A DNA stretch of 63,356 nucleotides, filler included, from Asterionella formosa (GCA_002256025.1; 17 parts of 17 records of this genome joined end to end with filler, not necessarily neighbours in it); one strand, 5' to 3'; shown: positions 521 through 62,330, counted from the whole stretch's first letter. The notes: a model not told the origin generated them from the letters alone. Numbers and translations are program-made.

Positions 521-563
521 TACAGTACCAGGTACCCTGCTACCTGGTACCAGGTACCAGGTA
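521..563. repeat. Array of TA-core-TA units
   Basis: Parses as TA-CAG-TA-CCAGG-TA-CCCTGC-TA-CCTGG-TA-CCAGG-TA-CCAGG-TA. Confidence 0.85.
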
Positions 564-864
564 CTGTTCATGGAGCAACAGATACGCCCCGGTACAAACA
601 GAGTGAACGAGGAGTATTTTTCAATACAGTACATACGTACTTGTGGAATTGAAAAGTATGCACTGTATCGTCACCAGGAGGAACACGTGCGATCTTTGTG
701 GCTAGGTTTACTTCCTCGAGCGAAAGGAAAGATTCCTGTGCGGCGAAGATTTTATCAGCAGGTGGACGATTGAGTCGCCGCAACTTTGACACTCCATCAA
801 TCCAACAACAAATCCAACCGCCGTCTTGCTGAGCAAAGCGCCTAAGAACCTCTCAATCCACGTC

Positions 865-1314
865 ATGAAATCTTTCGCCCTCCTCGCATCGTTCCTCCTC
901 GCTTGGAGGTCCACATTGGCCTTTGTGGTTGTCACTGCGCCTCATCCTCGCGCTCCGGGGCTTAACGCTGCTGTCCCACTCGCCAATGGTGCCATGTCGT
1001 TTGATCGCGTGTGCCGTGAATGGCGTTGCAAGTACACCGGAGACAAGTCCACAAGCGAGTCCCTTGAGGCCATCTCCAAAGTGGTGGACGAATATCTTCC
1101 TATCATCAAGCAAGTGTCGTCAGGAGTGACTGTCAATCGCCTCATTTGTGGTGGATGCTTGGACTTTAAGCTCCAAACGACTGTCCCGTTGGACGACTTT
1201 GGTCCTTGGGAGGCCAACGGATTTGCTCCTGAAGCTGACTTTCTTGAAAAGATCAAGGCGATTGAAGGTGTCTCCGTGGTGGAAACGCAGACGATTACCA
1301 ATATGGAGCTTTAG
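865..1314 (+). CDS. Conserved small plastid-targeted algal protein of unknown function with a CGGC motif
   Basis: ATG at 865, signal peptide with LA-F cleavage motif, mature region with [22 protein letters not shown] and VETQT; intact ORF. Confidence 0.85.
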
Positions 1315-1738
1315 TCACAACGCAACAAACTAGTATTGGAAACTCTTGTAAAACTCAAGGTTGCTCTCCGAACGATGCTATAGATGGTAATAATTAGAAT
1401 CAAATACAAAGCTAGAAATATTTCACAAACCGTTAGGAATTCAAGAAGACTTCAGAACCGGATGCACAATGGTAGACCCCGGTCGTGGGTTTGGTCATTT
1501 TCAATATGGTCGATGGGACAAAAGGAAATCCTCTAAAGGAAGAATAGCATAATCTCCCGACTAAACCATGGCAAATCTGAATCATTGTAATCGTAACGTT
1601 GGCTATGACCTTGAAGACACAAAATCCAAAAAAATATATTGAAATTAAGTAAAACCAAGAATTAATCTCACTGCATTTGAGCATTATTCTCAACGCAAAC
1701 AAACAAATACGTATAGAAATGGCCTTTCCTTCTCACAT

Positions 1739-4700
1739 TTATTGAAAACGATTCACCTCAGGCCTAGCGCCACATTGTTCACAGCACGTGCAGGTCATGT
1801 TGCAGTCAACCGTGTAAACAGTCAAATTCAGATCACACAATTCGGTGGGAAGTGGATCTACAAACCTGTTGCCACCAATTTGAAGTATAGTGAGATTTCC
1901 TAGGTTGCCAAGCTCTGAAGGGACAGTCCCATTCAAATAGTTGAGTTCCACGTCCAATCGTGCTAGACTGGCCATTTGACCCATATCCGAAGGGAGCGTA
2001 CCGGACAAGCCATTCTGAAACACCATGAAGATTTGCAAGTTCGTCAAGAAACCGACGCTCCGTGGGATTGTGCCTGTGATTCCAGGCCTCCTGGCTTTGG
2101 TAATACGATTACGGAAGCATTGAAATTCTTGCAATGCTTTCATGTTGCCAATGTTTCCTGGTATGGTGCCGGAAAGGCTATTGTCGCCGCAATACAAGAT
2201 TTCCAAATGTACAAGGTTGGTGATCAAATCTGGAATTTGACCCCATAAACTGTTGTATTCGAATCGGAATCTCTTTAGCAGCAAAATGTTGCCAACCTCG
2301 AATGGTATAGTTCCAGTAAGTTTGTTATTGTTCAGTTTCAGATCAGTCAATTTGGTTAAGTTTCCAATCGACGTAGGGATTGATCGGGTTAAAGCATTAT
2401 CAAATAAAGCTAGTTGTTTGAGCGAGGCCAGTTTGCCTAGCTCGGATGGAATCGGGCCTACAAGCATATTGCTCCCCAAATCCAAAGAGAACAATACGCT
2501 CATAGCCCCAATTTGAGTAGGGATGGTTCCAACAAAACCATTCTGAGACAGTCCGAGGATTTGAAGCTTATCAAGCAGACCCAGTTGAGAAGGAAGCACG
2601 CCTTCCAAGTCGTTGTCGGCCAGCGAGAAACGTTCAAGCTCAACGAGATTTCCAATCGCAGTCGTTAAACTACCAGTCAAGTTATTTTTATCCATTGAAA
2701 GAACTTTCAAAGACTTGATTTGGTACATAGAAGCAGGGAACTCTCCCGTGAACGAGTTTCTGTCGACATCGAATAATGTCAATCTATCCATTTTTGAAAA
2801 GTCAATCACAGACAAGTCTCCAGAAAAACTATTGTATGACAACGCAAGGATGCTAAGGCTCGCGATTGTATCTATACTCCACGGAAGGCTGCCTTCGAGA
2901 TGGTTGATACTCAAGTTCAACTCGATAAGGTTGGTCAGCATTGCAATTTCGAGGGAGAGTGTTCCAGTCATATTGTTGTTGATCATATTTATGCCGACAA
3001 CTTCTCCGTTCTCATCACATGTAATTCCATACCATTCACATTCGTCTGGACCAAGCCAGTTAGTTTCATTTTTCCAGGGCGTGGTGGCACTGTTGAAGTA
3101 AAGTGTTGCCAAACCATATCTTTGAGCGATTTGCACTTGGTTTTGCGATGATAAGTCATTTGGATCAAGTTTCAAAGGGTCATGGTTGACAATCCAGTTG
3201 TACGACATTGCTTCAGGACTGGTGGTATTATTAAGCGACACTCCACCATCAAACATGAGAAACGAAAAGAGAGTAGCAAATGCAGCACTTCTCTCTTGGG
3301 TTGGTGCTGGTGTTGGGACGCCTGTAGCAACACCTTCAGCACCATTGGCACCACTACTGTTATTTCCACCAAAGGCACCCGTTCCAAAGCCAATAGACAA
3401 TAACAGAATCAAAAAGATTATCAAGGCAATAATTCCAATAAAAATATACCTCTTTTTTGATTTGTTATGTTCACCAAAATCGGTGATGGATGATGTGGTG
3501 CCACAATCTTGGGGTTGTTCGTAGCCAACAACCTTGCAAGTTTCAGGGCTCAACGCAGGTAAAATTTCCGCTTCGGTGACATCCATCATATCACGACTCA
3601 TATTCATATCATTTGTCTTTCCCAAATCAGTCCCATACACACCGGAGGGGCCGAATTGTAATGCGAGAGGATTCTCCGTGTCAACAACCTGTTCCTCAGG
3701 TTTCGCCCTTGAAGGGAGAGGGCGCGACAGATTCGTCCCATTTTGATCTTCGTTCATGCTAGGGTCTTCATCGAGGGACGTTTTGGGGGCAACAATGATG
3801 TGTCCCTCGTCAACGTCAGATTCACAAGGCTTTGATACTTTGTTCCGCGAATCGGCTGCTTTAATTGCTATCTCAGGATCTTCGTATTCTCCGTTCGCAG
3901 TGTACGTTCCCGTAGCTACCGCGGTGGAGCCAGCCACAATTCCAAAAGTAGTCAACAACCTCGGGGGCATATTTTGTTCCTTGCGGTTGTCAACTATCAA
4001 CGATGAATATACTTCGGCATCATCAATATCTTTGACGTCTTCTGAAACCACGTCGTTGGTTGCATCCTTTTCAAGCGCGATTGGTATAGTAGCAGACATA
4101 CTTGGTGGTGGCCCGTAGTCAGCAATGTAGTCGTCATCTCTTCCCGTCGTGTTCTCAAACTCTTCCACCTCTCGAAAAAGGCTGTTTAGCTCTTCGTGCA
4201 GTTGTGCCCTAGCAATCAAATAATCGACATGTCCGGCTGAAGAGTCCCTAGCAAGAAGTGCAGCTCGAGGACGATCCCTCTCCACAACCTGCCGTTCCTG
4301 AGACGGCTCAAAATCATCCACAGATCGGGATATTCCAATGGGGGATGCAACGTCGGACGTGAAAGATGACATGTCTCCACGCTCCAAACTGCACTCCTCG
4401 TCATCATCATCACCATCGTCCGACGAAACAGTTCGCATCGCTACGGGGTGAATTTCCTTTGAGGGATATTCATCGGAGTAGCGTCTACTAGTGTCGACAG
4501 TGAAGTGCTCACTGGGCAAGTCATGTTCTTGATCTTGTAGTAGTTCTTCGGAAGGATAGTCCTGAGAACTGTAGCGTTCCTTCTCTGAGACAACTTCGAC
4601 AGGTGGATCAAAGGAGGACGCAACTGCGGCGCCTACAGCAATGACACCCAAACCTATTGAAATGACTCCATCAAAGAGGACATCGCCCAGGGTTTCTTGA

Positions 4701-5740: not shown

Positions 5741-6266
5741 GATGCGAGCGGTATGGTTTCGTAAAGGATGTAGCCCAAGAACTGGTTGAACAATACTCTA
5801 GGCTTTGAGGTTCCTGAATCAGTCGTTGATTATTTTCACAGTGAACAGGGAATGATCACGCCCATCTTGTGTATACCACCGGTTATGGTGTGTCAATTGG
5901 GAGTCTTGCGAACGTGTGCCATACATAGAAAAATGATAAGGACGAAGGGTCAGCGCAACGCATAGACACTTTATTCATACATGTAAATATAAACATGAAT
6001 TATTTCATTGGACTCGCCTAAATAACATGTCATCTTGTGACGGCTACAAAACCAATGAATGCGAATGTACAGTCATGGCTATTGGCCACTAAAAGGCGGG
6101 AACAAAGCAAAAAATACCCACGATTTCGGTCTTTACGGGTTCCATGCGACAGACAAAAGTACCGGGTAAGCATTCGACACCAAATATTTAGGTATCATAA
6201 TTAATAGATTGCCAGGCAGCACCACTAAATACGTAGTGGTACCTGGTACCAGTAGGTCTATGGTGG

Positions 6267-6738
6267 TGCAATGTGGTGCAGCGACAATATGACGTCAGCA
6301 AAGACTGCCTTACTTAAAAATTCATTATCGGTAGTAACCTATATAAATGATAAAAAATGCTTGCAATATTTCATTAGTACCGATATGTCCAATTAGATGT
6401 ATGTACCGGGTAGCCTAAGCCGTTGGCTTCTACAAAATACATGGCTTACATGAATCTGATCGCGATCCTATGTAGAGAATATCACTACGGTAGTGCAGGC
6501 CGTAGCACGGATTTTATACTTGGGTAGTCTGATGGTGCAATTTTGGTGTCTCTAAGTATTAGTGGTGCAATCGGTGGTGCAATTGTGGTGCAAATGCCAA
6601 TGGGCAGTCGAATTTACGAATAGTTTTCTCTTTTTCAACCCTGTTTGGGAAAAGTCATATATATAGGTTACCACCGATAATGAATTTTTAAGTAAGGCAG
6701 TCTTAGCTGACGTCATATTGCCGCTGCACCACATTGCA
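6267..6738. mobile_element. MITE-like element with 84-bp terminal inverted repeats
   Basis: 6267-6350 matches the reverse complement of 6655-6738 at 80/84. Internal TGGTGCAA repeats, no ORF, TSD unresolved. Confidence 0.8.
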
Positions 6739-7493
6739 GACCCTGGTACTCCCACCAGGTACCAGGTACCGAAACCAGCACCGGGGATGCCTCCAAGAAA
6801 AGACTGCTACCCGGTATGTATGCGGTATGCAATGTTGTAAGTCGTGCTCGTGCTTTCCAGGAAGAAAGACACGTGCTGGTATGTAATATCAGGGGGGGGG
6901 GGAAGCACACTCATGAAAATGCTCACCAAGACTTGAGCTGCAAATCATCCAAAACTAGAAATTGCTGACTATGACTAGAAGTTACTGATTGGTGAATTCC
7001 ATAAGTAAACAGTCTTCCAGTTGCGAAATACCATTACCAGTAGTAGTATGTGAACACAATTTCGATGATCAGAACACGACTTGGATTTAATTATTGATAA
7101 TTTAACATAATAGAAATTGACTTAAGAGAGTTTGGAATGTCTCTTCCAGTACTAGGCATGGGAGGAATCATTGGGAGTGAGTCATTGGGAGTGAGTCAAA
7201 ACTGAATAAGTGCGCATAAAACAGGCACTACCAGGCCTTTGAGGTAATACATAGGAGTACCAAAAACCACCTGGAACTCACCTGTTGGTGTTCCCTCTGT
7301 TGCCTGGACGAACACACCAATTGCGTCAATCTTCAACTTGGCTGGTATACCACACCGTAGCTATAAGCAAATCACACCAAGAGTGTGCACTCATGATGCA
7401 AAAGAGTTGAACGAACAAAGACAAAACAAGTAGACTACCCATAAACTTCTCTGTCCTGCCCCCCCCCCCCCCCTGAGGTTGCTGCCCGCCTAT

Positions 7494-7564
7494 GGAAGGT
7501 CCGGTAATCGAGATATTTAGGTTAATCTTTGCTTAAGTAAACAACTTGTTTTACCGGACCTTCC
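7494..7564. repeat. Short inverted repeat / mini-MITE
   Basis: Perfect 14-bp arms GGAAGGTCCGGTAA (7494-7507) and TTACCGGACCTTCC (7551-7564). Confidence 0.7.
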
Positions 7565-10270
7565 CTGTACATCTTTCTTGAGACAGGAACCAAACACCAA
7601 ATTATTTTCTAGACATGGACAAAGTTATGTACTATAATTCTGTTTGTCCTTGTAGAAACCGGTATATAATTATTTAGCTATGATGTTGCGATTCTTTTGT
7701 ACATATTAAACACTACTAGAGTAGATAGCTAGTGATTGCGATCAGCTGGAGAATCCTGCATCATGTTGTCACAGCCTTGACCAGCATGACAAAAAGAAAA
7801 ATACGAATTATCTCCACGGAAATTGAGAACGACGCTTTGCTAAGCACTTGCTATGTATATTAAGCATGACATGGAAAGTATAATCTTAAAAGAAGTAATG
7901 ACACTACTAATCATGACAACGAAAATTGAGATCGCCAATAGCAACATAAAGTCGCGTTTTTTCTTGCTAGGTGAAGAACTCTCCTCCCATTTTTTCACCT
8001 GATGTAAACAGTTGTCATAATAAAATGGAAAAAGATATTTTGTCCCCCTTTTTTGCCACATGAATCTTCGTTGGTGGCTCGACAACACTGCCATGACTGC
8101 TGCTACACAAATGCATGCACATCATTTTTTTGTTCATATTGACTCTGATCTTCAACAAAGCTGTCAGAACCTATTGGGGGCAATACAGAGAAGGGAGATG
8201 AAATTTAATCCCACATAAATCTAATGGATCAAGTCACAATTCATTCTCGAGAAAAATGCGTTAAAACTGTTACCAAGTATTATAACGATATGGACGTGTT
8301 TCTGAAGTTGTACAAAGGCAGCAACAGTAGACGAATTATCTTCAGATGCTATCATGGAGGAGTCTATGATAACCGCAAGAGACAATGCAGATAACCCACT
8401 GGAATTCTAACCCATTGATTGCTGTGTTGACTTGAAAATCTCGCAACATGCCCTAGATTTGTACATGGTGGAATTTAAAGCTGCCAAGAATGTTGAAACC
8501 CCAACACAAGTAACTTCAGCACAAAATATGATATCCCATGTAGACATAATATCTACGACAAAATGCAGAGCTCCGGAACCTTCTAAAGCACCGATTTTCA
8601 CAAGCATGGGATGCTTCAGCACGAGACTCCATCCTCAGCAGCCAATGTCTCCCCTCCATGAAAGAAACAGCTGAATTCAATCCAAGAGACCCTATATTTG
8701 GTATAAGCTGATCAATATCCCGTTTTATTGCAAAGACTTGAGGAAGAAGCCACTTCTCAACCGCTGCATATGCTTTCCAATCTAGTGGTGTAGTTAGAGA
8801 CAAGCGTGGACGTCCTCCAGGCTCTAAAAACCGTGCTAATCAACGAGATAAGTTAAGATTTGAATATTTAAGTGGAAATCAATGGGGTAATTGCGGAGTG
8901 AATGGTATGCGAAATTAGCTCATGTACCTGTCCCAAATGAATAAATTCACTTATTTTTAGTAATTAATATATGTAGTCAATGCACTCTGAACTACTCTTT
9001 GCATGTTATTCATTGGTATACAAAGACTCAACAGTAATACACCTGGTATATTGAATATTATGATGAATATTTTGTAAGTTAGGAGCAAAGAAGACAAACT
9101 ACCTTTGCACAATACCTGTTGATGCCACTATACACCCATCTTGAGCAAAGATCTATTCTCTTCAACATCAGTTCGTGCTAAAAGTCAAATGCATTAATTG
9201 CTCAAGAGAGGAATTAAGGATTTACTAAGCATGGAAACGATGCCGAAGCATTTGAGATTCGATCCACTGCCTTTGGACCAACTCATCCACTTGTGCTGCA
9301 AATTCAGCAACTATTGAAAAGTTTCCAATCTGCTGCACCTGCACCTGGATCAACTTTTTCCAAGTCAAGCCAATCCATGAAGAAATGTCTGCCAACCCCA
9401 GAGATACCACAATTAGACATGAAAACACAGAATGACTTGTCACCTATTCCTACTAGTCCATCTCTGAGGTGCAATGACGCCTTCCAATTAGGCCCTTAAT
9501 GACACAAATTTGTTAGAAATTTAGCCCCTGGCTGCAGCTGCAATGTATCCTGACGTTGTAGTTCCAGATTTACAACATTCACCACTTGCCAGTTGTGCAT
9601 TGATATGTAGCCCTCGTGATCCACCAGCACGAAGATTGCTTTGTGCGCTCTGACCACAAGACATATCCAATAGAGCTGTGGTTGCACTGAATCGACTTGA
9701 GGCAGCGTTGAATGTCATTGGCTCTCACGTAAAATGTGGTTATTTTCTTCGTTTTGGTGGCTTGGGCATGAAGATTGAATCCTCAAATAGAACCAATACC
9801 GGCTAAGTCGATGTTGAAGATGAGTGTAGAACATGCCTGTTGGCGTCCTTGATATCCTCTTGGTGTGGTGTTCCGACAAATACAATATGATCCATTTGCA
9901 CATCCACAACTGTTTCTAACGTTTGGCTCAAAATGGATGTATTGTTGGCCTAATGACAGCTTGGGATACAAGCGCTGCAGCATGGAAATCACTGGATTGT
10001 TGTTGTGCTGTTGAGGTTGTGGCTTGCCATCGCCTGTGATCTGAAGTAAGGCAGCTGCCAGCGGTTTGGTGAGATGAGATTAACCCTCCAGCAGTACATG
10101 TAAATCGTTGGAAGGGCAAGCTTTCCTGTCGGAAAGTATTTCTGCTGCCAGTTCCATCATGATTGCAAGTGTTTTGTTGAGCCAATTTAGATTTGTGTGG
10201 CAAAACATATTGGTGGTTTTTATGAGGGTTATTACGTAGGCTAGCTAGGGTTTAGGGTTTATCAAAAAGA

Positions 10271-10344
10271 GGGGGACGAAATATCGAAATATGGAGATGA
10301 AATATCGAAATATGGGGATGAAATATCGAAATAGGGGGACGAAA
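10271..10344 (+). repeat. 21-bp tandem repeat, about 3.5 copies
   Basis: Unit KGGRGAYGAAATATCGAAATA, next to TAGGGTTTAGGG and subterminal to the putative MULE. Confidence 0.85.
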
Positions 10345-10585
10345 GATCTTTTTCCTACTAAAATAATATATCTTTACTACCCAGTAAATCTTTTCATTGT
10401 CCTGGACCCCCCCCCCCTTTTGTAAATTTCAGTCACGGCAGTGTACCGGTACATTAGGGGGCGGCCAGGACAAAGAAGTTGACCATATACTATTACCGTT
10501 TAGAGAAGTTGACTGATTTTACCTCAACTTTGCTTCCCACTCGCTTCCTTCACTACTTCTCGGACTAACCATCGCAATCACCATC

Positions 10586-12457: not shown

Positions 12458-12577
12458 GTTTGATACAACGAACGAGGAAGAAGGAGAAAAGCAATATTTG
12501 TTCCTTTCACAGAACACGATGATCTCCAGATCTGCCTGCATCCACACCTACAGCAGTGTCAACTCAAAACCAGGGCA

Positions 12578-12672
12578 CCTACCGGTAGTACCTGGTACCA
12601 GGTGGAGTACCAGGTACAAGGTACTGGTACTATGGTGGTGGTACATAGATGCCAGTACGGAGTACCAGATAC
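12578..12672. repeat. TA-core-TA array upstream of the small secreted protein gene
   Basis: Clustered TACCGGTA, TACCTGGTA, TACCAGGTA, TACAAGGTA and TACTGGTA. Confidence 0.75.
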
Positions 12673-14422
12673 TGCCTAGGCCAAGTTGAAGTCATTTTGC
12701 TTGAAGAAACAATTTAATTAATATAGGATAAAAAAAAGCTAAAGATTTTGTTTGAGCACAATTACCGCAACTTGCCAGGTATGTAGCACTGATAAAATGC
12801 AACTCCTACCATTGAGTCGGCTCGTCGGAGTCGACTCACATTCCCGCCTCCTGTCAAACCTGGTACCAGTACCAGGGTACCAGAAGCATGGACGAAACAC
12901 GAGAGCAAGGCAAACAACCTTGATACCTGAAATATTTTGTTGTAGTCTTAAATGTTCCTTCACAATGCCACATGTTTGGAAGAATATTTGAATAAAAACT
13001 ATCATTTGTATGGTAATAAATATCCATAATGATGAGGCAGAGATACACACCAGAATGAAGGAAAAGTATGATAGGCAAATGGAAGGAAAAATTCGTGATG
13101 ATGCCAGGTAAAATCTATGTGAGTTATCTGGATCTGAAATATTGCAAGGAACAGTGGGAGTTGGAAAAAGCATTGATTTGAGCAAACTAGATAAAAGACT
13201 CACAATAAACAGACAGGGAGAAACTGTTCCTAATTTATTGCCTGATAACCAGCAATCATAGCTACTAGTGAGGTATACAATAGTATATTATGTTGGAGTT
13301 AAATACTATAACATCACAGTACCCTGTTACCAGGTATATCGCATTTTTTTTAACTAATTATGTACCAGGTAGTATTATACTTTATGTAAGATACAAATCT
13401 ACTACTAGTTGGTAGTATTCAATGCATGAAATGGACCCCCTGTAGTTTGCTTTGCTTTGTTTTTTGTTGGTTCCCTATGATCTCTGATGCTTGGTGCCTG
13501 GTGCCTGGCACATATGGAGAAGATTTCAGTATTAATGGTAGGGATTATTTTGCTTTGGTTGAAGCTTTGTAGCCCTCCTCTTAAAGTGCACCTTATGTTC
13601 TCAAGAGTAACCAGTAAATATATCCACACCCAAAGCGATCGCCATGTGTTATGCCTCACAAATTGACATGAGTCGAACCTTCACTGGTTGCCCCCCGGTT
13701 TCCTGTTTCAGAGTCTAATCAAAAGGTTTTGGTATTGCATAGGATAACTGCGTCCTTAAAGGCCCTCAATAAATGAATTTATTATATTACATATTAGAAT
13801 GCACTGTCATGAATTTGAATTCTGCTCAGCAGCAAGCAAGTAGAGCGTTTTTCGTCAGGTTAGCTTTTCATGCAGACAGACACCTTCTCAGGTATTGCTC
13901 ATTCAAAGATAAGGTCACTCAAATAATCCATTAGGTTCTTAGTCCCATTTGGTCACCTCCCTGGCCCAATGTTGAAATAAGTAAACAAATGACTCCCTGT
14001 TTCATTGCCACTGTAAAAAAAAATAGAAAAAAGGAAATTCAAAGAACAAAAATTCGTCAAGTAGGAATGATATCATTAGTGTTCAGCATTAGGTAGAAAG
14101 TGCCTTGCACTGGAAAACCCCATGAATTGATGAAGGTGTTTGCGTAATGTAGTTGCTTCATCCTTGAATAATTCATGTCGAAATTTGAATGTCACCAACC
14201 GAAATAGTTTGTGATCGGCAATCTCGCATGTATTACCTTTAAACGTGCCATTTGATGGACTGCCCAAAGGCATATAGCATGGTGTAATAGGAAATATCAT
14301 GTGATGTACACACATAACGCCAGCATAGAATTACATCCTATGTAAAAGAAAGTTCTTGTAACATCAATATGAAGAGTAATTAATTTGGTTTTTGTTGGAC
14401 TTGCTCTTCAATTCGAACATTT

Positions 14423-16291: not shown

Positions 16292-17277
16292 GCTTCAAGG
16301 TGAATCAAAAACAAAATATTGTGAGAACTTCTGAGGCCTGGGCCGGACTTTGAAACATTTGTTGGCCGGATGGATCGTGAGAATCACCGAACCACCAATG
16401 AAACTTGGTTTGGTGCCGGGAGACTCATCCCCCCATGACACACATCGAATTTTCTAGAGCGATAACTAATGTACTTATGTGGAGCTAATAAATTAGACAA
16501 CCTCATGCATTTATGCTGGCATTTACAGGTGCGCATGTGCAGATAACTGGAGCGATACATGCATTAAAATATCGGTAAGTTCGTGACAGAACTACCGTAT
16601 CATGTTACCAGTACCTGGTACCGGCACCTTGACAAGGAGAGCGAGCGACGAATGTGATTACCGGTCACAGGTCGGCCTTTTTACTTTCGACAACACCAAG
16701 CAATTATGTGTACAGTCTCTTCTAGAGTACTTTATACGGCAACAATGACCCATCGAAGGCTCGAGACGTGCAACTCGGAGAAACTGAAGCAGACTACAGG
16801 TACCGACCGGTACCGGTTCTGTGGCCATATCTTAGTTCACTTGCATCCTTACATGTATGATAGTCATAGTCATAGTAAAAGCTAGTCATTATTACCAATC
16901 GTGAAGCGGCCCATGCCGCTTCGGTACCTATCTTAGACTACCAGCCAAGAAATGCTAATGACCACTATGAACTGCTTACCACAAAAACGGGGAAATCTTA
17001 CATTTGGTACTACGCACAAACTTTTTCAATTTTAGAGATTCTACAATATTGCTATGAGGAAGTCATTTGTTTTATGCATATACATATGTATTCTAACACC
17101 CGATCGATGATGTTGTGTTCCAGTTGGTGAGATACCTGGTACTCCTCTGTCTAGTAACAGTTGCATCGATAATTCAAATTTATCCGGGGCCATTTTGACT
17201 TATACGATTTTCTCCGGCTCAATTGCCCTATTGTGCGGCTTGCTCTAAGCTACAGAATCATATATACATTATATATA

Positions 17278-17449
17278 GAAAGACTAAAATTGGCAACACA
17301 TTTGAAATTTTTTTTTGGGATTTTTCGATTTTCACTTGTAGCTATCTCGAGCAAAATGCAGATGCATGAGGACCCATTTTTCTTCGAACCATCTATTCTC
17401 AACATACGTACAAAGTACGATACTATAACAGTAGAACAACTGAAACTTG
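17278..17449 (+). repeat. Dispersed repeat, copy 1 (probable transposon subterminal region)
   Basis: Aligns with 47185-47360, including an identical GAGGACCCATTTTTCTTCGAACCATCTATTCTCAACATAC block. Confidence 0.85.
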
Positions 17450-18999
17450 TAATTGCCTGCATGATTTGGGTGAGTAAAAGTTACATAAGAGTGTGTTCAG
17501 TACCTATCAAAGCTGCCCCCTCGTGCTACAATAGCTTTTACCTTCAATTCATAAAATATTTAGAAGAAGGCTTGTAGTGATGAATATGCCATAGTTGATG
17601 TAATGAAATCTATAAATAATTTATATACATTTCAGTTTCATTGCAAGGGTAATTGTGATCCAGCCAACAAAATTAGTTGCAGCATTAAAATGAACAATTG
17701 CCAATTGTGTGGGCCACATCGGATGTTGGAATCATGTGCTCGACAACGATTGTTGCTTTGATCGCAGACCACCAAAGTGATAGCAGCCTGATTGTTGCCA
17801 TGGAAAGCCTCCGTCTACCGGCCGCTTTTGCGATGATTCGCTTCAGGAGCTTGTTGGCTAGCTAAGAGTGCAACATGGCTCGAATGCTCAAAGTTTTGAA
17901 AGGGAATGGCTCGATAAAGGCAAACAATCTTTCCAACATATCAACGTAATTGCTGCCAAGCCTTGCCGCCTACTACGCCACTTATTTTTCCTTACCTCGC
18001 TTCTGACTTCGTGCTCAAAAGCAGACCGCCACCAGCAGCAATGATTGCGGCCTCAGCTGACAAGGAGGATGATGAAAAGGATGAAGCTGTGGTGATGGAG
18101 GAGTGATTATGTGTTCACACAATCTTGCTACCCGGTAAGTCAGTAGACCGAAGGAAAAAGAGAAAATATGGAAAACGAGGAAAACATTTTCTAACCGTTT
18201 ACCATAAAATAGTTTTTATACATAAAGAAAAATAAAACCTCTAAAATGCAAAATGAACGACTAAAAAGTTCGAATATCATAACAAAATAAACTTCAAATT
18301 ATTAGAATGATTCAACCAGCTTATACTTGCATGCATTTGTTGACCTCTTCTCAAAGGGTTTTATTTGGGGTCAGCTGAACATTTTTCTGGGTAATATAGT
18401 GGTCTTAAGCAGTTTTTGACTGGTACCATAAATCACGTACTAGTCCTGCCTCCCAGCAACCAATGTACACACCCAAGATTCAATTTACTTACATGAGACA
18501 GTAAAACAGCCTTTTTGCGCGCACTACTCCCTTCCATTGATCAAAAAGTTATCCCTAATGTCTTCTTTATAGTTGAAAACATACAAATGATATGCAAAAG
18601 ATGATATTGTTCTTAGTTAAATCGCTTTTTATGATAATTTGATTTTCCAATTTAGGGTGCACTTGTGCGCCAGAAAATTAGCAGAAGTCACATAGCTAGC
18701 TATACATCCCTGTTTCAAAACCTATATTATGATGATCTTGTCTAGGTTCTACAAGGTTTTGCTGTGCCGGAATTTCACCAAGCTAACCACATCATGTTAT
18801 TTATTTGTGCATCATGATGACGAAAGAATTCATCAGCCTCAGGCTGAAGAAAATTTTGGTGGAAGCCTTTTCCAAGCCAAATAACATTAAGGTGACTGCC
18901 AGTAGCTGCCTTTCTGTTTTTCTTGAGCAAATTAGGCAATGGTGGGCCATGTTTGCTTTCCTACCTGTTCAAGCAGCAGAAGACAGTGACATAAATAAT

Positions 19000-25510: not shown

Positions 25511-25547
25511 ATACCTGGTACCTGGTACCTGGTACCTGATACCGGTA
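25511..25547. repeat. TA-core-TA array upstream of importin-4; a second array at 25785-25860
   Basis: TA-CCTGG-TA-CCTGG-TA-CCTGG-TA-CCTGA-TA-CCGG-TA. Confidence 0.85.
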
Positions 25548-26039
25548 AACGGTAGGTCCATCATATATTTTCATATCGTCTTCCTGAGCCAACAAATCAT
25601 GGCGTATAATCTTGTGGTGTAACAAAGAAAGATGAATGGTTATGAGGGGAGCAATGACGATGTCGCCGGGATCTTAAATCAATGGTTGGAGGGAGCTGGA
25701 GGGATGCACAGACATCAGGTTGAAGGATGGCTGATGGTGATCTAAGGTAAGGCGTTGGATATGGACAGACGGCATTTCCAATGCCGGTACCGGTATGATG
25801 TATGGGGTATGCACCAGGTGATACCAGGTACCTGGTACCTGGTACCTACCAGGCATGTACAGCCCTTGTCGACTTGACTACGGTACCAGGGTAGTCATAC
25901 ATTTCTGTGTACCAGGTACCGTTATGACACTGCAGTGTGTTGGTGGTTACGGCTGTTTACTTACGACCTGGAGAACCGTTGACCCTAAATTTGCAGAATT
26001 GCGAATTTCTGGTGGTTGAGTGAGAGAGTGATGAGGCCA

Positions 26040-30763: not shown

Positions 30764-30863
30764 NNNNNNNNNNNNNNNNNNNNNNNNNNNNNNNNNNNNN
30801 NNNNNNNTTAATTAATTAANNNNNNNNNNNNNNNNNNNNNNNNNNNNNNNNNNNNNNNNNNNN

Positions 30864-39029: not shown

Positions 39030-39896
39030 GGTGATGTATGCATCGATGTAACCTTATCATGATATCACAGTATCATCTTATCAATCATGATGAGATGATT
39101 GGGAAGCAACTGTATTCTGCATCGTGCTACAGGGTATATTATTATATCACGCAATTTAGTAGCGAAGTCACTCCGCCTGTAATGTACTAAAGTCGACAGT
39201 GCACATACCGGGTACCGGTACTCAAACGCTAATCAGGTTTGAGGCAACGGACAGTGGTTCGAACGAGCGAATGATGATACGGTACCAATTTTTCCAACGA
39301 AAGAACTTGTCTCTCTATTGATGAGGATGACACGGACATGGACACGGACACCGACTTTTCCAGGAGCAAACAACAATGAAGAGACCCACTTGTCGCTCTA
39401 TTGATGGTAACAAAGATGCGGACAAGCAAGTTCAACAGTGAATACAAGAACAACATACCATTGAAAACAAGTCGACAGTGTGTGCACGCACACGCCAAGC
39501 AAGTTTTAGGCAACAGACAATTCCAACAAGCAAATGACGATACTGATATCAAATTCTTCCTACGAGCAAACAACAATGAAAAGAGCCACTTGCTTTCGCT
39601 CTCTTGCTTGTTGGTATCAAAGATGCGGACAAGTTCAATAGTTAACTCAAGTACAGTATGCCAAATGCAGAAACGAGCGAACGATATGAAAATGAAATGC
39701 GTTCTAATCAGAATCATTCTATAACTATAGCTATGTGGACAGCAGTCTGTTACGCACATTTTCGTATCTCCTTCTATGCTGAATCTCAATAGTAGATGTA
39801 GTATCATGTGAGAATTGAAAATGTCAACGAGAACAAGTACCGGTAGAATGTGTTTGTTTACGGGTTGATTGGCGAGATTGTCATGCTGAAGTGGAC
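39030..39896 (-). repeat. Dispersed repeat of at least 860 bp, copy 1 (non-autonomous element)
   Basis: Reverse complement aligns closely with 55702-56558, with a sharp boundary at GTCCACTTCAGCATGAC. Confidence 0.92.
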
Positions 39897-40305
39897 AAAA
39901 CAGATTACTTTGTGTGCAAAATCGGAAGTTGGTAGGGTTTATAATGTCGTTTATTTCTCCGTTCTGAATGATTGGACCATTAATAGCAGCAGCATCATGA
40001 TCTACTAAACTATCAAGGAATAAACCATTATCATAGTCATCGGCATCAAAACAAACTGTTTGAACGAAATCAATGGCTGCTGGCGATTGTTTCAGGAATT
40101 TTGCAAGGGGGTCTTGAGAGTGGTGTCGTCCATCTCTTCGAGAAGTCGCTACCATTGATGATGTCTGCGATGCTTGAATCTGAGATTGAATCATATCTTG
40201 TTGCCCACACGAGGGGCTGTGTCTGTGATGACTACGAATTGATTTAAAAGGACCTTTACCACAGAATTTACATTTGTCCTCGTCGTTATTGTCACACAGA
40301 TCCAT
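39897..40305 (-). pseudogene. Zinc-finger N-terminus of a probable transposase (Plavaka/CMC-like), interrupted by the repeat
   Basis: MDLC...CKFCGKGPFKSIRSHHRHSPSC followed by an acidic region; coding character ends at the repeat boundary. Confidence 0.45.
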
Positions 40306-47360: not shown

Positions 47361-49220
47361 CGTTCAATAATGGAATGCGCAACCCCGAAAGTTGCAATGA
47401 AGAAAACAACGGTATGATTGGTTTGAAGATTATAACTGTTAAACATCCGGCTGTATGGCCCATGTAGGCGCAACAACAGTAGAAAGTATACTGAAAGACC
47501 ATTACTCTATTCACATTATAATTATGATAGAGGTGGCTTGCTGTATTCGGTTTCCCGCAAATATTTGAGTGGTAGGCTGATGCGATAACAGCATTTGGCG
47601 AAATGTGCATGTATGCAATGAATATGCATTTGTTAAATTGGTTTCGAATAATTTATTAATATGCTAATACTTCAATTACAAAAACCGAGTATATGCTCAC
47701 ATCTACTATGTAACTCATAAAAACGCATTTTTTTGGAGTAAACCGACCCTCACGTAGAAATTTGGTGTATTGCCTACGTAATCCTTCATATGCAAACAGT
47801 CAAGACACTAGTGGTGCCAGCGAATCGATGCAACCATTATTGGACACAGGGAGTACCACACTGGCGAGAACAACAACAACAACAAATCATCGCTGATTTA
47901 ACCACAATCAACACATCGTCAAACCCTCATTTCACCAACATGGATTCATGTGACCATCGCCCACATAACATCATATCATGTCTAGATGCTAATGGTGAGG
48001 TAAAACCATAGAAATACTTTGCAGGAAAAAGTATCTAATTCCCAAATAGGAATCATAATATTTCATTTATAAAAGTAGTCTAATAGAAATATTTTACTCT
48101 TTTTGTTATGGTTTTGTCATCCTACATCACAGTAGATGGGTAGTTGACAACATTTAGGATTTCCCAATAACCGATAGCATCGTTTTTGCGTCAGTCTGAC
48201 CAAAACCAAAACCAATCCAAAAATAAGTTTTTGGGTCAACAGTTAGCAACGGCCTAATACATTTGAAATATGTATAAATATTAACTACCTGTACTGGTAG
48301 ATGGGCTAGCTACCTGTACCAGGTACCCCTGGTACCAGTCTATATGGTATATCGGTAGCAGGCAGCCGGTAGCCGATAGCCAGTAGCTGGCAGCTATAAC
48401 TAATAGATCTACCGGTACCTGGCACTCAAGGTTACCAGGAGTACCTGGGAGACTAAGTTGATTACCGCATATCCTAGCTTAATAATTGCTAATATGGAAC
48501 CAAAAGAAGAGCATAGTCTCAAGTCTAAGGGGCAATCTTAACAGAGATACAAAAATTAAAAAGGTTGCTCAGCCCAGTATTTTGTACTATCTCACACATC
48601 CAGGTGGTATGTTTCTTCCAGCAACAAATTATTTGTTTCTCCGAAATGTGTATTTTTTTGTTTTGCTGCCGATACAGTGTGAACCAACACTAATCTTGTA
48701 AAATTAAAATATGTCATGTATTTAATTAAGGTTCCTGCATTTCAACCCTAAGGCAAAAATAAAATATTGCTTAGGGTTGCCGAAATTCCCTGGAACTGAG
48801 ATTTTTTTTGAATGACATGATTTCGTTTGAAATATTCAAATCAGTGGAAATTTGCGCGTACGTACATAGATTCCTTTTTGAAATAGCTAAATATATAAAT
48901 AGAAATTGTGCATCACTGTATGTATATGTACCAACGATTATTCTTCTTATATACGACCCGGCGGTTCAGCAAATATTTGAAAGTGCAATCCACAAGTGGT
49001 ACTAGTAGGTACCACACGTATGATGTCCAATGATACTGGCACCTGATACCACCTAAAAACTGAGAGTCATACAAACTTTCAGTTTTGTACTGATAGTCAT
49101 AATAAAACGGGGTAATCACANNNNNNNNNNNNNNNNNNNNNNNNNNNNNNNNNNNNNNNNNNNNTTAATTAATTAANNNNNNNNNNNNNNNNNNNNNNNN
49201 NNNNNNNNNNNNNNNNNNNN

Positions 49221-54812: not shown

Positions 54813-55701
54813 TTTTACAATTGTTGATTGTGAGAAACATTATTTTGCCCAATAATATTAGTATAGCAACATGAGTGGATTTTGGGCTACTATTTCTCAA
54901 ATTGGAGGTTTAGATCAATGATGCAGAATAAGAAAAAAGTTACTCTATCATAATGAGAATAAATTTAGTTTTACCATTTTCAAGCAATGAGTAACATGCA
55001 CTACTGGTACAGCAATTATGGTCAAACTCAAGGAATAGTCAGGCAATGAAGGGAATTGTACACTGGTCCATGGAGTCAACTACATTGCTAAAAGTAACTA
55101 CTAGACCTGTTAATCATAGATGAATGCTTGGAGGTTCTTCAGTGTTGGGGTAAATTGAAGGACAAGCATGATGATAGAGATGATAATGGCAATGAAAGAA
55201 CAACATCAATATCAACAGGGGAAAGNNNNNNNNNNNNNNNNNNNNNNNNNNNNNNNNNNNNNNNNNNNNTTAATTAATTAANNNNNNNNNNNNNNNNNNN
55301 NNNNNNNNNNNNNNNNNNNNNNNNNTTTGTAATTTAAATAGTAACCCTTTTGACTACATATATTTAATTATTATATGTATTGTTTCTATTTGATTCCTGT
55401 ATTCGAATTTCTTGGTAGGATAATGTACCAGTTCAAGTAATGTAATTTGGCTTGTCATTTCCATCCGCCCCTCCTCATCACTCCGATTTTTCCAAAACAA
55501 CGAAATACTAGCGATGACAAGCGGAATGAATGTTTGCGATAACGTCTTCAATTTGTTGGTCAAGTGATCTTTATATCTTCGAGTAATCGTCATGTGCAGT
55601 GAACCTTTGTTCATAATCATTCAATTAAGAGTTTACAGGAGAGAAGAAACCATTCGAACTCGTAATGTTTCCGCACACAGCGCACAAAGTATATCCGTTT
55701 C

Positions 55702-56558
55702 GTCCACTTCAGCATGACAATCTCGCCAATCAAGAACCCGTAAACAAACACACTCTACTTGTTCTCGTTGACATTTTCAATTCTCACATGATACTACATC
55801 TACTATTGAGATTCAGCATAGAAAGAGATACGAAAATGTGCGTAACAGACTACTGTCCACATAGCTATAGTTATAGAATGATTCTGATTAGAATGCATTT
55901 CATTTTCATTTCGCTCGCTCGTTTCTGCATTTGGCATACTGTACTTGAATTAACTATTGAACTTGTCCGCATCTTTGATACCATCAAGAGAGCGAAAGCA
56001 AGTGGCTCTTTTCATTGTTGTTTGCTTGTAGGAAAAATTTGATATCTGTATTGTCATTTGCTTGCCTGTTGGAATTGTCCGTTGCCTCAAACTTGCTTGG
56101 CATGTGCGTGCACACACTGTCGACTTGTTTTCAATGGTATGTTGTTCTTGTATTCACTGTTGAACTTGTCCGTATCTTTGTTACCATCAATAGAGCGACA
56201 AGTGGGTCTCTTCATTGTTGTTTGCTCCTGGAAAAGTCGGTGTCCGTGTCCGTGTCCGTGTCATCCTCATCAATAGAGAGACAAGTTCTTTCGTTGGAAA
56301 AATTGGTACCCGTGGTATCATCATTCGCTCGTTCGAACCACTGTCCGTTGCCTCAAACCTGATTAGCGTGTGAGTACCGGCATGTGCACTGTCGACTTTA
56401 GTACATTACAGGCGGAGTGACTTCGCCACTAAATTGCGTGATATAATAATATACCTTGTAGCACGATGCAGAATACAGTTGCTTCTCAATCATCTCATCA
56501 TGATTGATAAGATGATAATGTGATATCATGATAGGGTTACATCGATGCATACATCACC
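55702..56558 (+). repeat. Dispersed repeat, copy 2, continuing into AT-rich ATGAT-rich sequence to about 56940
   Basis: Reverse-complement match to 39030-39896; internal direct repeat near 55955 and 56158. Confidence 0.92.
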
Positions 56559-57700: not shown

Positions 57701-58425
57701 TACTACTAATGAAACACCAAGCACTGGGACTGACAGTATAAGCACATCTACAGGTGGTGCATGCTTTTCACAAATAGGCGGGAGACATCCATCGACCAAG
57801 TCGGACAGAAGTGTCATGTCAGTTCTTGTCACGTCTCTTCGTTCCAACTCCTCTTATTCGAAACCGTTTAATACGGCGGGATACAACCTTCCTCGCTGTT
57901 TCCCAAGTCCAATGGTATCACCAGAATGCAGCAAAGTTTTCTTCCCATTCATGATCCTTGGGACTTCGTCATGTTGTGGCGTTCTACCCCCTGCTCGATA
58001 ATTACAGCCACCCTGTCGCGGGCCGTTGCAACGCACGATGATGGGTGATGCACCAAATTTTTACGGTATAATAGATTCCAGCGCTTTGACTTTCACAGCC
58101 TCTCTACAGAGCTGCGACAGAAAATAAAAGGGAAAAACATAGTACCACCATAACCGTAGGTGCTACTTAAAGGTGCTGATAAAAGACGTAGACGTACTAC
58201 CTGGTACCGGTAGACATCGTCAGCCTGGCTAATTATCGCGCCAGTTAAATTCATAAAAGCAATATTATGATAACTACTGCCCGGGTAGGTATGCCGTGCA
58301 TCAACACATCACGAGCATTGATTGTCTCCAACAGTACTTAGAAGTGCTGTCACTAGTAGCAGATCACAATGATTTTGTTGTTTTAACAAACTACGTGTTA
58401 ACTTAACTTTCGCCAAACCACCACC

Positions 58426-59293: not shown

Positions 59294-59393
59294 NNNNNNN
59301 NNNNNNNNNNNNNNNNNNNNNNNNNNNNNNNNNNNNNTTAATTAATTAANNNNNNNNNNNNNNNNNNNNNNNNNNNNNNNNNNNNNNNNNNNN

Positions 59394-61325
59394 TGCGCCG
59401 AGCACTGCGTTTGCCAGTAACTTCTTTCCAACCATCAAGGCGTTTAAATTCTCGTTCCAATTTTGCTTTCTTCGAAGCATCTTTGTTGATCTCATCACCT
59501 AACTTCCCCACTGCTTCGGATAGCTGAAATCTTGTTTGTTTCACAACTGGAACAGGTGTTTCCAAATAAATATCCTGCTGGATAGGTGGCACAAGAGGAA
59601 GAACATCTTCGTCCTGCTTTTCATCATCAATTGGAATAACAACCACTTCTGTGTCCCCTTCCACATTGAAATCCCTCAAACCTGCGATTGGACTTGTTTG
59701 GCCATGCCAATCAGCCCAGCGAATGTTTCGACTATTTAAAATCTTTCTTGTCTGAGGGTTAAACATTCGGTAAGTGTCTCTAGCATGATCATGAGAATAA
59801 CCAACCATCACACATTTAATGGCCTTTTCTTCGAGTTTATTTGTTTTCTTAGCACCAATTTTCACCCATCCGATCCTGCCAAAATACATTAGATGATCGT
59901 AAATCATTGGAAACTTTTTGTAAAACTTCTCATCTGCACTTTTTACATCATTAGATGTGGCCACAATGTTCGTGATTCGTGTGTTGGTGTTGATGGCCTC
60001 TGCCCAAAGTAAACCTTGAATTTCATAAATTAAATTTTGCAGCAAACATTGCTGCACATGCTCATTGACGAATGGTTACAAACTTTCGCTCAACAATTCC
60101 ATTCTGTTGTGGTGTGTAGGGTGCCGTAAATTCGATTTGAATATTGAATTTGTCGCATAGTTTTGTCAAACCTGAGACGTTTTCACCCGCATTGTCACAT
60201 TGGAGAAACTTGGTAACATACTCAGCCGTTTTGAGTTAAGTCAACAAATCTTCAATCTTTGAAGCAAGCTGTGACTTCTTCTTAGCAAAGAAACTCCAAG
60301 ATTTTCCGGTGTAATCATCAACAACAAGGATCCAATTGTCATTTCCTAAAATCGACTTTTTAAATGGACCGCTGATATCTGTGCACAAACGTTCGCCCGG
60401 TTGAGTAGCCTTGCTCATAGTGATTTTAGGAACACTTTTTGCTTTAGCCTTAGCTAGCGCACATCCTTCACATGTATACATCAAACCTGTCATTTTGAAA
60501 CCAAGCGATTTCATAGTAGCCCGCACTGCCGGTTCCCCAATATGTCCGTATTTAGCGTGAGCTTCATTAATGTCCATACTGGTCAATTTCGTTGTGATGA
60601 CCTCTGCAGATAAGATATCACTCCCACCTGGGTAAATTCCACGAGTTCCTTGGAAATAGTACAAAACATCTGAATGATCACGTTTGAAATCTAGCGTCTC
60701 AGTTTTTCCCGCTTTTGTCAAAGTCATTTGGTTGTGCTTCATACCAAGTTCGTATTTACCATCACGTACAAAAGTACCAATGCTGATAATTTTTTTATGA
60801 AATGTAGGTGTATAAAGGACATTCTTAAGCAAGAGTGTCTCATTGGTCACTTTGTTTCGCACGCAGACATCTCCGCGTTCCTTGCAAATGACTTCTTTAC
60901 CATCGCCTACAACAACGCGTACATTTACTGCTTTCACATTTGTCATATACTTATTGCACATAGTAATATGACTGGTTGCGCCTGTATCAGCTAACCAACG
61001 TTCCTTTTTCTCGATTGATGCGCAAATTTTACTCTCACTGTTTTTGATGCTTGCATGGTGTGCTTGATTGATCTCTTCATCCACAATTTCAACCGTCACT
61101 CCAATAAATGCATATTCTGTTTCTTCGCATGTAATGTAGACCTTTGTGTCTTCAACATATTCATAGTCAAAAAACGTCTTGTTGTTTGTAGTCAAGTCAA
61201 TTATTTCAAAATCATCATCTGTATCAGACTTTTCATCATGGATTTCGATCGTTTCAACAATACCAACAAACATTCCAGTTTCTTTCTTTTCCTTTGTTTT
61301 CTTTTCTTCAGGACAGTCCTTAGCA
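59394..61325 (-). mobile_element. Ty1/copia polyprotein fragment (zinc-knuckle end, protease, pre-integrase, integrase), pseudogenised
   Basis: AKDCP, WLADTGATSH, AHAKYGH..CEGC, TDISGP, VVDDYT, CDNAGE, TPQQNGIVER, LWAEA, CVMVGY; TAA at 60236 and a later stop and frameshift. Confidence 0.93.
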
Positions 61326-61775
61326 NNNNNNNNNNNNNNNNNNNNNNNNNNNNNNNNNNNNNNNNNNNNTTAATTAATTAANNNNNNNNNNNNNNNNNNN
61401 NNNNNNNNNNNNNNNNNNNNNNNNNGGACTGGGCATCTGGGTGTATTGCAACGCTCATCCAGTCAGACAAGAGGATATCTGTGAGTCATCTTTTGTAGCA
61501 GTAGGTGAACAAGCAAGGAATCTGCTGGACTGAAGACATACGCTTTAGCCATATCACAGGATTTACTGAGGAAATCAATAAACAAGCTTTTCCCTGAGCG
61601 TCAATTGATCATATCTTTGCTGTAAGACTCCAAATGTCGACCTGCCTTGTAAGGATACACAAAGAGGTTTGAATCTTGATGTTTAGTATGTTGTTGTCCT
61701 TCATCAATGGGACCACTGGAACTTGAGAGGACATCAAAAATATTAATTCTAATTGGACTCTTTTTGAATTCAAAG

Positions 61776-61973
61776 TGAAGTATCTAACTAGAAGTAGTAG
61801 TATTTGTTGAATATATGAGGTTATTTGTTAATCCCTTGTGTGTAACTCATTCTCTAAGTCGACACCAAAGTATACAATGAGGGTTAGTTGAGTTCTCTCA
61901 TTATTGAGTTCTGATACATATATGATATAACACTAACCCTATATACATCTGTATTGATGCGCAAGATCGCTCA
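61776..61973 (-). repeat. Diverged extra LTR copy (198 bp)
   Basis: TG...CA ends, aligns with 62109-62304; flanks CAAAG and CCTTT give no TSD. Confidence 0.8.
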
Positions 61974-62108
61974 CCTTTTACTGGTACCTGGTACCAGGTA
62001 CCCGATTCTATTGTATACCGGTAGTTTGGGATGTACATACATACGGGTGTAGGACCAGGGTACCACTCTATCTCATGGATCTGTTAGTGCCTGGAGCAAG
62101 GTACCTGG

Positions 62109-62304
62109 TGAAGTATCTAACTAGAAGTAGTAGTATTTGTTGAATATATGAGCTTATTAATTAATCCTTATGTATAACTCATTTCCTGAACTGACATCAA
62201 AAGTATAGAATGGGTGTTAGTCGAGTTCTCTCATTATTGAATTCCGATATATTTGACATAACCCCAACTCTATATATATCTGTATCGATGTGCAGGATTG
62301 CTCA
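62109..62304 (-). repeat. 3' LTR of the gypsy element (196 bp)
   Basis: Minus-strand TGAG...TTCA directly after the purine tract GGGAGAG, 26 nt past the integrase stop. Confidence 0.85.
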
Positions 62305-62330
62305 CTCTCCCACACTTGAGGGAAAACCTT

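Follow-up and report, generated by a model that had tools for sequence, protein, structure and literature searches.

Transposons of the Tc1/mariner superfamily integrate at TA dinucleotides and are released by a staggered cut, the stagger being 3 bases for Mos1 according to the available excerpts of PMC4505599. The excision sites of mariner and Stowaway elements retain the duplicated TA together with short pieces of the element ends, as described in the accessible sections of PMC4561436, and in rice 8/94 excisions were clean, most being accompanied by deletions or filler DNA (excerpted text of PMC4423477). Here, we describe a stretch of 63,356 nucleotides from the alga Asterionella formosa (GCA_002256025.1; hereafter the window), whose non-coding DNA abounds in short words consisting of a core between two TA dinucleotides, standing alone or chained into arrays. 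The TA-CC(W)GG-TA words (W being A or T) are probably excision scars of Tc1/mariner-like MITEs (miniature inverted-repeat transposable elements).

The enrichment of these words over a Markov background, calculated on the window, is strong and specific for polarity, which agrees with the initial annotation in its description of non-coding DNA rich in TACCAGGTA, TACCTGGTA, TACCGGTA and TAGCTA. Compared with expectations from Markov models of order 1 and order 3 for the whole window, TACCAGGTA occurs 12 times (0.1 and 0.3 expected), TACCTGGTA 13 times (0.1 and 0.3), TACCGGTA 17 times (0.2 and 1.0) and GGTACC 42 times (6 and 16). In an unbiased ranking of 8-mers, TACCGGTA and ACCWGGTA(C) come out on top once the assembly linker and poly-C are set aside. 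Among all TA-x-TA words, the CCWGG core ranks first (25 observed vs 0.45 expected) and CCGG second (17 vs 0.37), followed by GC (30 vs 9), CCCGG/CCGGG (5 vs 0.13) and CCAG/CTGG (11 vs 1.9). The mirror-polarity controls TAGGCCTA and TAGGWCCTA are both absent from the window, where words with TA replaced by AT, AA/TT or GA/TC occur 0 or 1 times. In simulations of 200 sequences per Markov model (orders 1, 3 and 5), chains of at least two cores averaged 0.14, 0.36 and 1.19, compared with 15 observed, and TACC(N)GGTA units averaged 0.58, 1.7 and 15.8, compared with 47 observed. Three of the seven words originally listed fall short, TACAGTA/TACTGTA showing no enrichment in the window (3 + 3 vs about 3 to 4 each) and TACGTA (14 vs 4 to 8) and TACTAGTA (3 vs 0.4 to 0.8) only a weak one, whereas the rest are enriched. 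The palindrome TAGCTA is enriched about 3-fold (30 vs 9) and occurs in 30 scattered single contexts (for example 7358, 17339, 26537 and 48307); its polarity, with G first, does not match that of the CC...GG scars.

The same grammar extends to metagenome contigs, in which the pattern GGTACCWGGTACCWGGTACC was found in at least 124 stretches at 123 loci (219 kb). These loci are of two kinds, namely high-GC loci with one uniform array and loci with a GC content of 0.38 to 0.50 that carry the grammar throughout their intergenic DNA. A pooled set was formed from 50 of the 123 loci (GC 0.38 to 0.50, at least 1 kb, excluding two overlapping duplicates; total 133 kb), arrays of at least two units being masked. 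In this set, TACCWGGTA occurs 172 times vs 1 expected, TACCGGTA 31 vs 1.2, TA-CCAG-TA 108 vs 4.5, TA-CAG-TA 116 vs 21 and TA-C-TA 1160 vs 300; as the loci were chosen for an array, these counts describe array neighbourhoods only. Open reading frames (ORFs) of the low-GC loci include DUF6824 and ShK domains, which are common in diatoms, and repeats 70 to 84% identical to ones of the window occur in four loci, so that related species carry the same feature. Viral contigs gave no match to a 20-base array pattern.

Three elements flanked by TA and ending in the CCW...WGG manner predicted by the initial annotation lie in the window, one of them inside an array. F1 is a foldback MITE of 498 bases (6249..6746) with TA on both sides (6247-6248 and 6747-6748), whose arms (6267-6350 and 6655-6738) span 84 bases and are 95% complementary. 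Its left end reads CCAG(TA)GGTC... after the TA and its right end ...GACCCTGG before the TA, i.e. CCAG...CCTGG between TAs, the terminal repeats being CCAG(TA)GGTC and CCAGGGTC. F1 sits within an array, with TA-CCTGG-TA to the left, as part of the array TA-CCTGG-TA-CCAG-TA that adjoins its left end (6240..6254), and CCAGG-TA-CCAGG-TA to the right, in the remnant CTCCCA-CCAGG-TA-CCAGG-TA-CC (6749..6771). F2, a non-autonomous element of 1483 bases (16941..18423), is likewise bounded by TA on both sides (16939-16940 and 18424-18425); its terminal inverted repeats of 29 bases (24/29 matching) both begin CCAG right after the TA, and homology ends exactly there. None of its 14 ORFs exceeds 134 aa, so none is of transposase length, and none of these ORFs was scanned for families; the element also carries single units at 17133 and 18129. 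F3 is a MITE of about 105 bases (~12677..12779) with a conserved inverted repeat of about 20 bases. It ends on the right in ...CTTGCCAGG, i.e. in CCAGG before the TA at 12780-12781, and on the left in a degenerate CC-TA-GGCC. Related copies occur in two metagenome loci, L009 (beginning CCTTG...) and L063 (beginning CCAG...); TA precedes both, and the L063 copy comes directly after a TACCAGGTA unit.

The TA target-site duplication is thus present on both sides of F1 and F2, on the right side of F3 and at the L009 and L063 copies, and in all three elements the terminal inverted repeats reach the element ends. The cores CCGG, CCAGG/CCTGG and CCAG/CTGG match the element ends CCAG(G)...(C)CTGG, as excision footprints should. 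In three DNA runs, summed contig depth in the bins containing F1 and F2 is 100 to 300 times that in single-copy bins. An unbiased scan of the window for TA-flanked ungapped inverted repeats returned 18 pairs, comprising four of F1 arms, five array self-matches, one of F2 and eight weaker pairs with 14-15 of 18 bases matching. The terminal CCWGG is interrupted by a TA, or by an additional A, at the left ends of F1 (6253-6254) and F3 (12677-12678), as seen by comparing CCAG-TA-GGTC with CCAGGGTC in F1 and CC-TA-GGCC with CCTGGC in F3.

Related copies of the same sequence differ by a core plus one TA at a TA, as had been anticipated, in a small sample of alignments. The repeat copy at 39030..39917 (minus strand) and its partner at 55680..56558 (plus strand) are 93% identical and show 7 indels in their aligned part, 3 of which follow the TA grammar. 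One is a clean TA versus TA-CCGG-TA difference, with a single TACCGGTA at 39838..39845 and a bare TA in the paralogue near 55763; in another, TA-CCGGG-TA-CCGG-TA at 39206..39220 faces a paralogue (near 56340) with one unit fewer and the second TA changed to CA; the third lies within a core, TA-CCCGTGG-TA at 56307 corresponding to TA-CCG-TA in the other copy. The remaining 4 are ordinary and measure 3 or 4 bases. F2 has a partial second copy (47185-47360, aligned with 17278-17449) that differs by 6 indels, and all three of the 3-base ones are TA versus TA-C-TA; one of them is no tandem duplication and is also polymorphic among sequencing runs, at 17421. Between the homologous metagenome loci L049 and L063, the well-aligned part contains 6 indels, including one of TA versus TA-CAGG-TA and two that are whole arrays present in one sequence only, with flanks about 90 to 95% identical. 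Finally, the F3 copy of L063 has TA-CCAG-TA-CCTGG-TA-CCGG-TA where the copies of the window and of L009 show a bare TA; judged from this alignment, the three-core array appears to have been born at a TA without a seed.

All ten arrays cited in the initial annotation were located in the sequence. Besides those around F1, they include TA-CAG-TA-CCAGG-TA followed by TA-CCTGG-TA-CCAGG-TA-CCAGG-TA in a probable divergent promoter (521..563, with a period of 7 in Tandem Repeats Finder, TRF) and, beside F3, a region with the cores CCGG, G, CCTGG, CCAGG, CAAGG and CTGG (12578..12672). TA-CCAG-TA-CCAGGG-TA with flanking half units lies at 12856..12882. At 16598..16625, TA-CCAG-TA-CCTGG-TA-CCGG stands 22 to 50 bases past the RNA contig end of a carboxypeptidase gene (minus strand), followed by TA-CAGG-TA-CCGACCGG-TA-CCGG at 16795..16818. 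Three copies of TACCTGG and then CCTGA-TA-CCGG-TA (25511..25547) are found about 110 bases past the RNA contig end of an importin gene, near a cluster of units and arrays at 25785..25920 (25788, 25822-25844, 25879-25893 and 25910). Further examples have the cores CCTG, CTGG, CCTG, CCAGG and CCCCTGG (48286..48334) or read TA-CCTGG-TA-CCGG-TA (58198..58212), and TA-CTGG-TA-CCTGG-TA-CCAGG-TA with a single TACCGGTA at 62016 lies between two copies of a repeat resembling a long terminal repeat (LTR; array at 61979..62023). This LTR-like repeat begins TG, occurs at 61775-61974 and 62108-62400 and in another metagenome locus (L027, 185-470), and lies beside a gypsy-type integrase ORF (62331-63356, minus strand). 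It adjoins CCWGG of an array in three independent copies, in the window, in L027 and in an RNA contig loose end at 25513, which may mean either that integration is targeted to arrays or that CCWGG is part of the repeat's end. The 200-base repeat 61775-61974/62108-62305 was also considered as a MITE ending CCWGGTGAAG, and is more likely the LTR of a gypsy-type element with the adjoining integrase ORF.

Positions 6001-26000 were examined for depth and contig structure with three mapped DNA runs, which come from different studies, and a single RNA run. In the three DNA runs, summed contig depth in the bin of the arrays at 25511-25920 is about 110, 72 and 50 times that in neighbouring single-copy bins. 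Contigs end at the array edges 25512, 25536, 25822 and 25846, and de Bruijn contigs of the three DNA runs break at 25511..25547. At each array edge, 14 to 48 contigs continue into sequence with a mutual agreement of only 0.34 to 0.43; the high depth and the divergent continuations together indicate that arrays are very numerous genome-wide and lie in unrelated contexts. RNA contigs carry arrays too, 5 of their loose ends falling at 25828 and 8 at 25846. Because the contigs of all three DNA runs end at arrays, numbers of units are not comparable between runs. A skip at 8292-8569 in the run comparison was checked and looks unrelated.

With respect to genes, arrays avoid intact coding sequence and several lie in probable promoters, both as first described. 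Only 8 of the 47 TACC(N)GGTA units fall inside stop-to-stop ORFs of at least 150 aa, which cover 46.6% of the window (binomial p = 2e-5). Five of these eight lie at 344-555, two in an ORF at 39229-40422 that matches no family, and one in the retrotransposon integrase ORF; ordinary cellular gene families hold none of them, the ORF at 344-555 being unscanned. Read from ORF orientation and RNA contigs, units at 300-865, 5797-6816, 10444, 13328-13371, 16606-16818 and 25512-25918 lie 5' of genes. They make up most units of 1-30763, and the importin gene has none in the 3.2 kb on its 3' side; a 3'-3' spacer holds the array at 12578-12672. Transcript ends cannot be fixed from the contigs, and placement in promoters is accordingly a reading of gene orientation, the RNA contigs giving only a hint of arrays just past transcript ends. 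The 5' placement fits either promoter-biased insertion or function.

A mechanism that would account for these observations starts from high-copy non-autonomous cut-and-paste MITEs whose insertion at TA duplicates this dinucleotide and whose ends read 5'-CCAG(G)...(C)CTGG-3'. By analogy with the Tc1/mariner mechanism, staggered cleavage by a presumed transposase would leave 2 to 3 terminal bases of the element on each flank, and end joining would then yield TA + CC(A) + (T)GG + TA, i.e. CCGG, CCAGG or CCTGG, with CCAG/CTGG, CGG/CCG and C/G as rarer products. Ends of the form CCAGG...CCTGG with 2+2, 3+2 or 2+3 bases retained would give exactly the three dominant words, and the rarity of the 3+3 product may be due to the usual loss of one base when two non-complementary overhangs are joined. 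Since each scar holds two TAs in a G-TA-C context, it could be targeted again, and repeated insertion and excision, aided by replication slippage of the near-palindromic 7-base unit, would build arrays of mixed cores. Stacking by re-insertion is supported by the position of F1 within an array and by the three-core array of L063. Slippage, too, probably lengthens arrays, as suggested by the excess of like neighbours and by the bacterial arrays described below; a single excision could also write more than one unit if it were repaired in several rounds of templated synthesis.

Three outcomes had been named in advance as speaking against excision scars, namely a lack of enrichment, indels off TA or due to slippage of adjacent bases, and a lack of TA-targeting elements with matching ends, and none of them occurred. 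Several observations nevertheless weigh against this explanation. No transposase of any kind was found among the 30 window ORFs and 37 of the 82 low-GC-locus ORFs scanned, a search that covered the 63 kb window of the genome and part of the related-locus ORFs. No site was found at which one copy holds an element and another a scar; 793 reconstructed pre-insertion sites were searched, and for the window's own queries junction-spanning non-self matches led only to the known paralogue pair. The window has no full 3+3 scar, TACCATGGTA, and the 133 kb of metagenome loci have two. Of 68 run-to-run indels, the 12 listed include one anchored on TA (17421) and none in an array. The paralogue evidence consists of a handful of alignments, partly of metagenome loci selected for holding an array; gain and loss look alike in such pairs, each indel being equally explicable as a deletion between two TAs, so that the claim of TA-anchored indels stands for the several that add exactly a core and one TA and not for their direction. 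As for stacking, which is not cleanly separable from slippage in these data, F1 in its array and the three-core array of L063 speak for it, whereas a 26-29-base array of L049 stands where L063 shows no TA, and neighbouring units share their middle base in 135 of 208 cases and differ in 73 (low-GC loci), i.e. 65% against the 50% expected of independent events. Two further difficulties, the existence of arrays within an element's inverted repeat and of uniform arrays in bacteria, bear directly on the alternatives.

The simplest of these regards the arrays as an ordinary heptanucleotide repeat, (GGTACCW)n, seeded by chance and lengthened by slippage or hairpins as in bacteria, with single units as decayed arrays. 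TRF indeed reports period-7 arrays at 525-564, 25512-25547 and 25822-25847, one paralogue difference is the gain or loss of a whole unit, the 65% of like neighbours would be expected, and a decayed array at 13487-13513 shows an identical change in successive units. Moreover, the 20-base array pattern occurs in at least 110 stretches of prokaryote genomes, several per genome, and thus uniform arrays can arise without an excision mechanism. Uniform (GGTACCW)n arrays recur across bacterial lineages, some assemblies of Acidimicrobiia, Gemmatimonadaceae and Planctomycetota having several loci each. However, 26 of the 47 window units stand alone in unrelated contexts with borders exactly at TA...TA, so that a process making discrete units is needed, and TACCGGTA is an 8-base unit outside the heptamer that still reaches 17 occurrences against at most 1 expected. 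Differences such as TA versus TA-CCGG-TA or TA versus a three-core array occur at seedless sites. Where a simple sequence repeat should consist of one unit head to tail and vary by whole units, 14 of the 15 window chains mix cores of different length, only 25512-25534 being head-to-tail copies of one unit; 234 of 270 chains are mixed when window and low-GC loci are pooled, and arrays combine direct and inverted units. Prokaryote arrays are far more uniform, 171 of 195 neighbours sharing W and 24 differing (12% mixed vs 35% in the low-GC loci), and outside arrays their loci have no TACCGGTA and 16 TACCWGGTA in 109 kb. The single units, 8-base units and mixed chains of the alga are a pattern different from the bacterial arrays, and a simple repeat is quite unlikely to be the whole explanation. 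A signature of repair without transposons, in which breaks in TA-rich promoters are healed by polymerase-theta-type templated synthesis or hairpin opening that copies nearby sequence in direct and inverted orientation, would suit the perfect palindrome TACC/GGTA, the mixture of direct and inverted units and the whole L049 array at a site without TA in L063. Local copying would not, however, arrive at identical words both at loci unrelated to one another and in related species; the words also agree with the terminal bases of resident elements flanked by TA, and mirror-polarity palindromes are absent from the window, which makes this the most improbable of the alternatives considered.

It is unlikely, too, that the arrays are themselves pieces of transposon ends, i.e. 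solo ends or internally deleted copies of a MITE superfamily with (TACCWGG)n in its terminal inverted repeats. An ungapped scan of the metagenome loci for elements of the form CC...GG between TAs gave mostly low-complexity hits, L022 and L028 alone being convincing. In these two loci (GC 0.53, a different organism), a repeated element with differing flanks has the inverted repeat GAGG-(TACCAGG)3-TCGATTT..., ending ...CCTC, so that arrays can be carried along within an element. Extended outward, the complementary arms of F1 also reach GGTACCTGGTACC on both sides, and the LTR-like repeat adjoins CCWGG in its three independent copies. Yet L022 and L028 belong to that different, higher-GC organism, contigs leaving the window's arrays enter unrelated sequence on both sides (the 14 to 48 divergent contigs per edge mentioned above), and, apart from known repeat pairs, a BLAST of the window against itself revealed no conserved sequence next to arrays. 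Single units are, moreover, always trimmed exactly at TA...TA, and core length varies within one array. Selection for binding sites would instead suppose a dimeric protein recognising GGTACC or TACCGGTA palindromes in promoters, with arrays as homotypic clusters. The confinement of palindromic motifs to non-coding DNA and their position mostly 5' of genes, with none in the 3.2 kb behind the importin gene, would suit such a function. Nevertheless, in the single homologous pair L049/L063 the arrays are the least conserved part, being gained, lost or rebuilt between flanks about 90 to 95% identical, so that positions are not conserved, and new units come from a complete 6-base block inserted at TA, not from point changes. 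Units also lie inside MITEs and in the 3'-3' spacer at 12578-12672, a promoter preference of cut-and-paste elements gives the same placement, and the literature searched holds no report on the motif. Binding sites thus appear distinctly improbable as the origin of the words.

If excision scars are indeed the source of these words, cut-and-paste elements would shape this genome less by their inserts than by their remnants and would be an unusually large source of new gene-adjacent sequence. Scars would then be among the commonest non-coding words, concentrated near gene starts, and, in the two pairs compared, would make up about 40 to 50% of small indels. They would form a readable and countable record of past transposition, explain a signature common to related algae of marine and freshwater metagenomes, and offer a simple system for the interplay of end joining and target choice. 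For annotators, palindromic promoter "motifs" of this kind need not be binding sites, and short-read assemblies break at the arrays. A more speculative and rather doubtful extension is that scars act as self-reinforcing landing pads, each writing a G-TA-C site preferred by the same MITE superfamily, such that promoters accumulate GGTACC-spaced docking arrays and vary rapidly in diatom-like algae. If so, a transposon-driven mutational process would write its own target sequence, and arrays would turn over far faster than point substitutions while providing safe docking for elements.

The window itself is eukaryotic DNA, with long ORFs for an importin-beta-like protein, a leucine-rich repeat protein and M48 and M14 peptidases, and with short introns (82 and 114 bases, GT..AG when read on the minus strand) visible in RNA contigs. 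Public runs containing its sequence are labelled as algae, freshwater or lake-water metagenomes. Bases 1-30763 form a single gap-free stretch, whereas 30764-61425 consists of unplaced contigs of about 2.04 kb in order of decreasing length (2042 down to 2032 bases), joined by 16 assembly linkers of the form N44-TTAATTAATTAA-N44 (first 30764..30863, last 61326-61425) that are not biological. This part being an artificial joining, the window samples many places of the genome and not one locus; pieces adjoining in 30764-61425 are not genomic neighbours but products of the assembler's length-sorted concatenation. Two of these contigs carry copia-type polyprotein fragments with SH3-like and beta-barrel domains (59338-61369), and an ORF at 36941-38977 (plus strand) comprises about 14 tandem 141-base units (36989-38919, 74% matches) in one frame of 678 aa, its product being a repetitive acidic protein without a convincing family. 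Homopolymers occur in non-coding DNA (G11 at 6892, C15 at 7459, C11 at 10407 and C9 at 45925); the C-runs at 7447-7471 and 10393-10417 are similar, and a short motif precedes both. A 21-base tandem repeat of 3.7 copies (10272-10348) lies about 170 bases upstream of the M48 peptidase ORF.

Compared with known systems, the alga's array strings were absent from the literature searched (supplements aside), which also held nothing relevant on diatom MITE or Tc1 elements or on GGTACC or palindromic motifs. The putative scars resemble Tc1/mariner and Stowaway-like footprints in that the TA duplication is kept and the cores are identical to the outermost 2 to 3 bases at the two ends of resident elements flanked by TA. 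They differ in that known scars are seen singly, at marked loci or in genome comparisons, whereas those of the alga would stack, would rank in intact form among the most over-represented words of the window and related loci, and would make up roughly 40 to 50% of the indels in two within-window repeat pairs (3/7 and 3/6). With their small size (105 to 1483 bases), non-coding sequence, flanking TAs and terminal inverted repeats, F1, F2 and F3 are like Stowaway-type MITEs, as are F1 and F2 in their high depth; unlike them, the CCAG(G) end is common to families with otherwise unrelated inverted repeats, and insertion is strongly associated with existing scars and arrays. The bacterial GGTACC-type heptanucleotide repeats share the same 7-base unit in tandem; they are uniform, with few single units and no scattered TACCGGTA, whereas the alga has single units, mixed chains and scattered TACCGGTA. 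Elements of the hAT superfamily make 8-base duplications. The footprints of its members Ac/Ds are likewise short, often palindromic insertions left at the donor site, but hAT scars are palindromic copies of target flanks made via hairpins and not element pieces (accessible sections of PMC4561436), whereas in the alga the TA and the element-end bases are constant. A genome with intact scars among the most over-represented words of the window, stacked in arrays, would be a new form of a known process.

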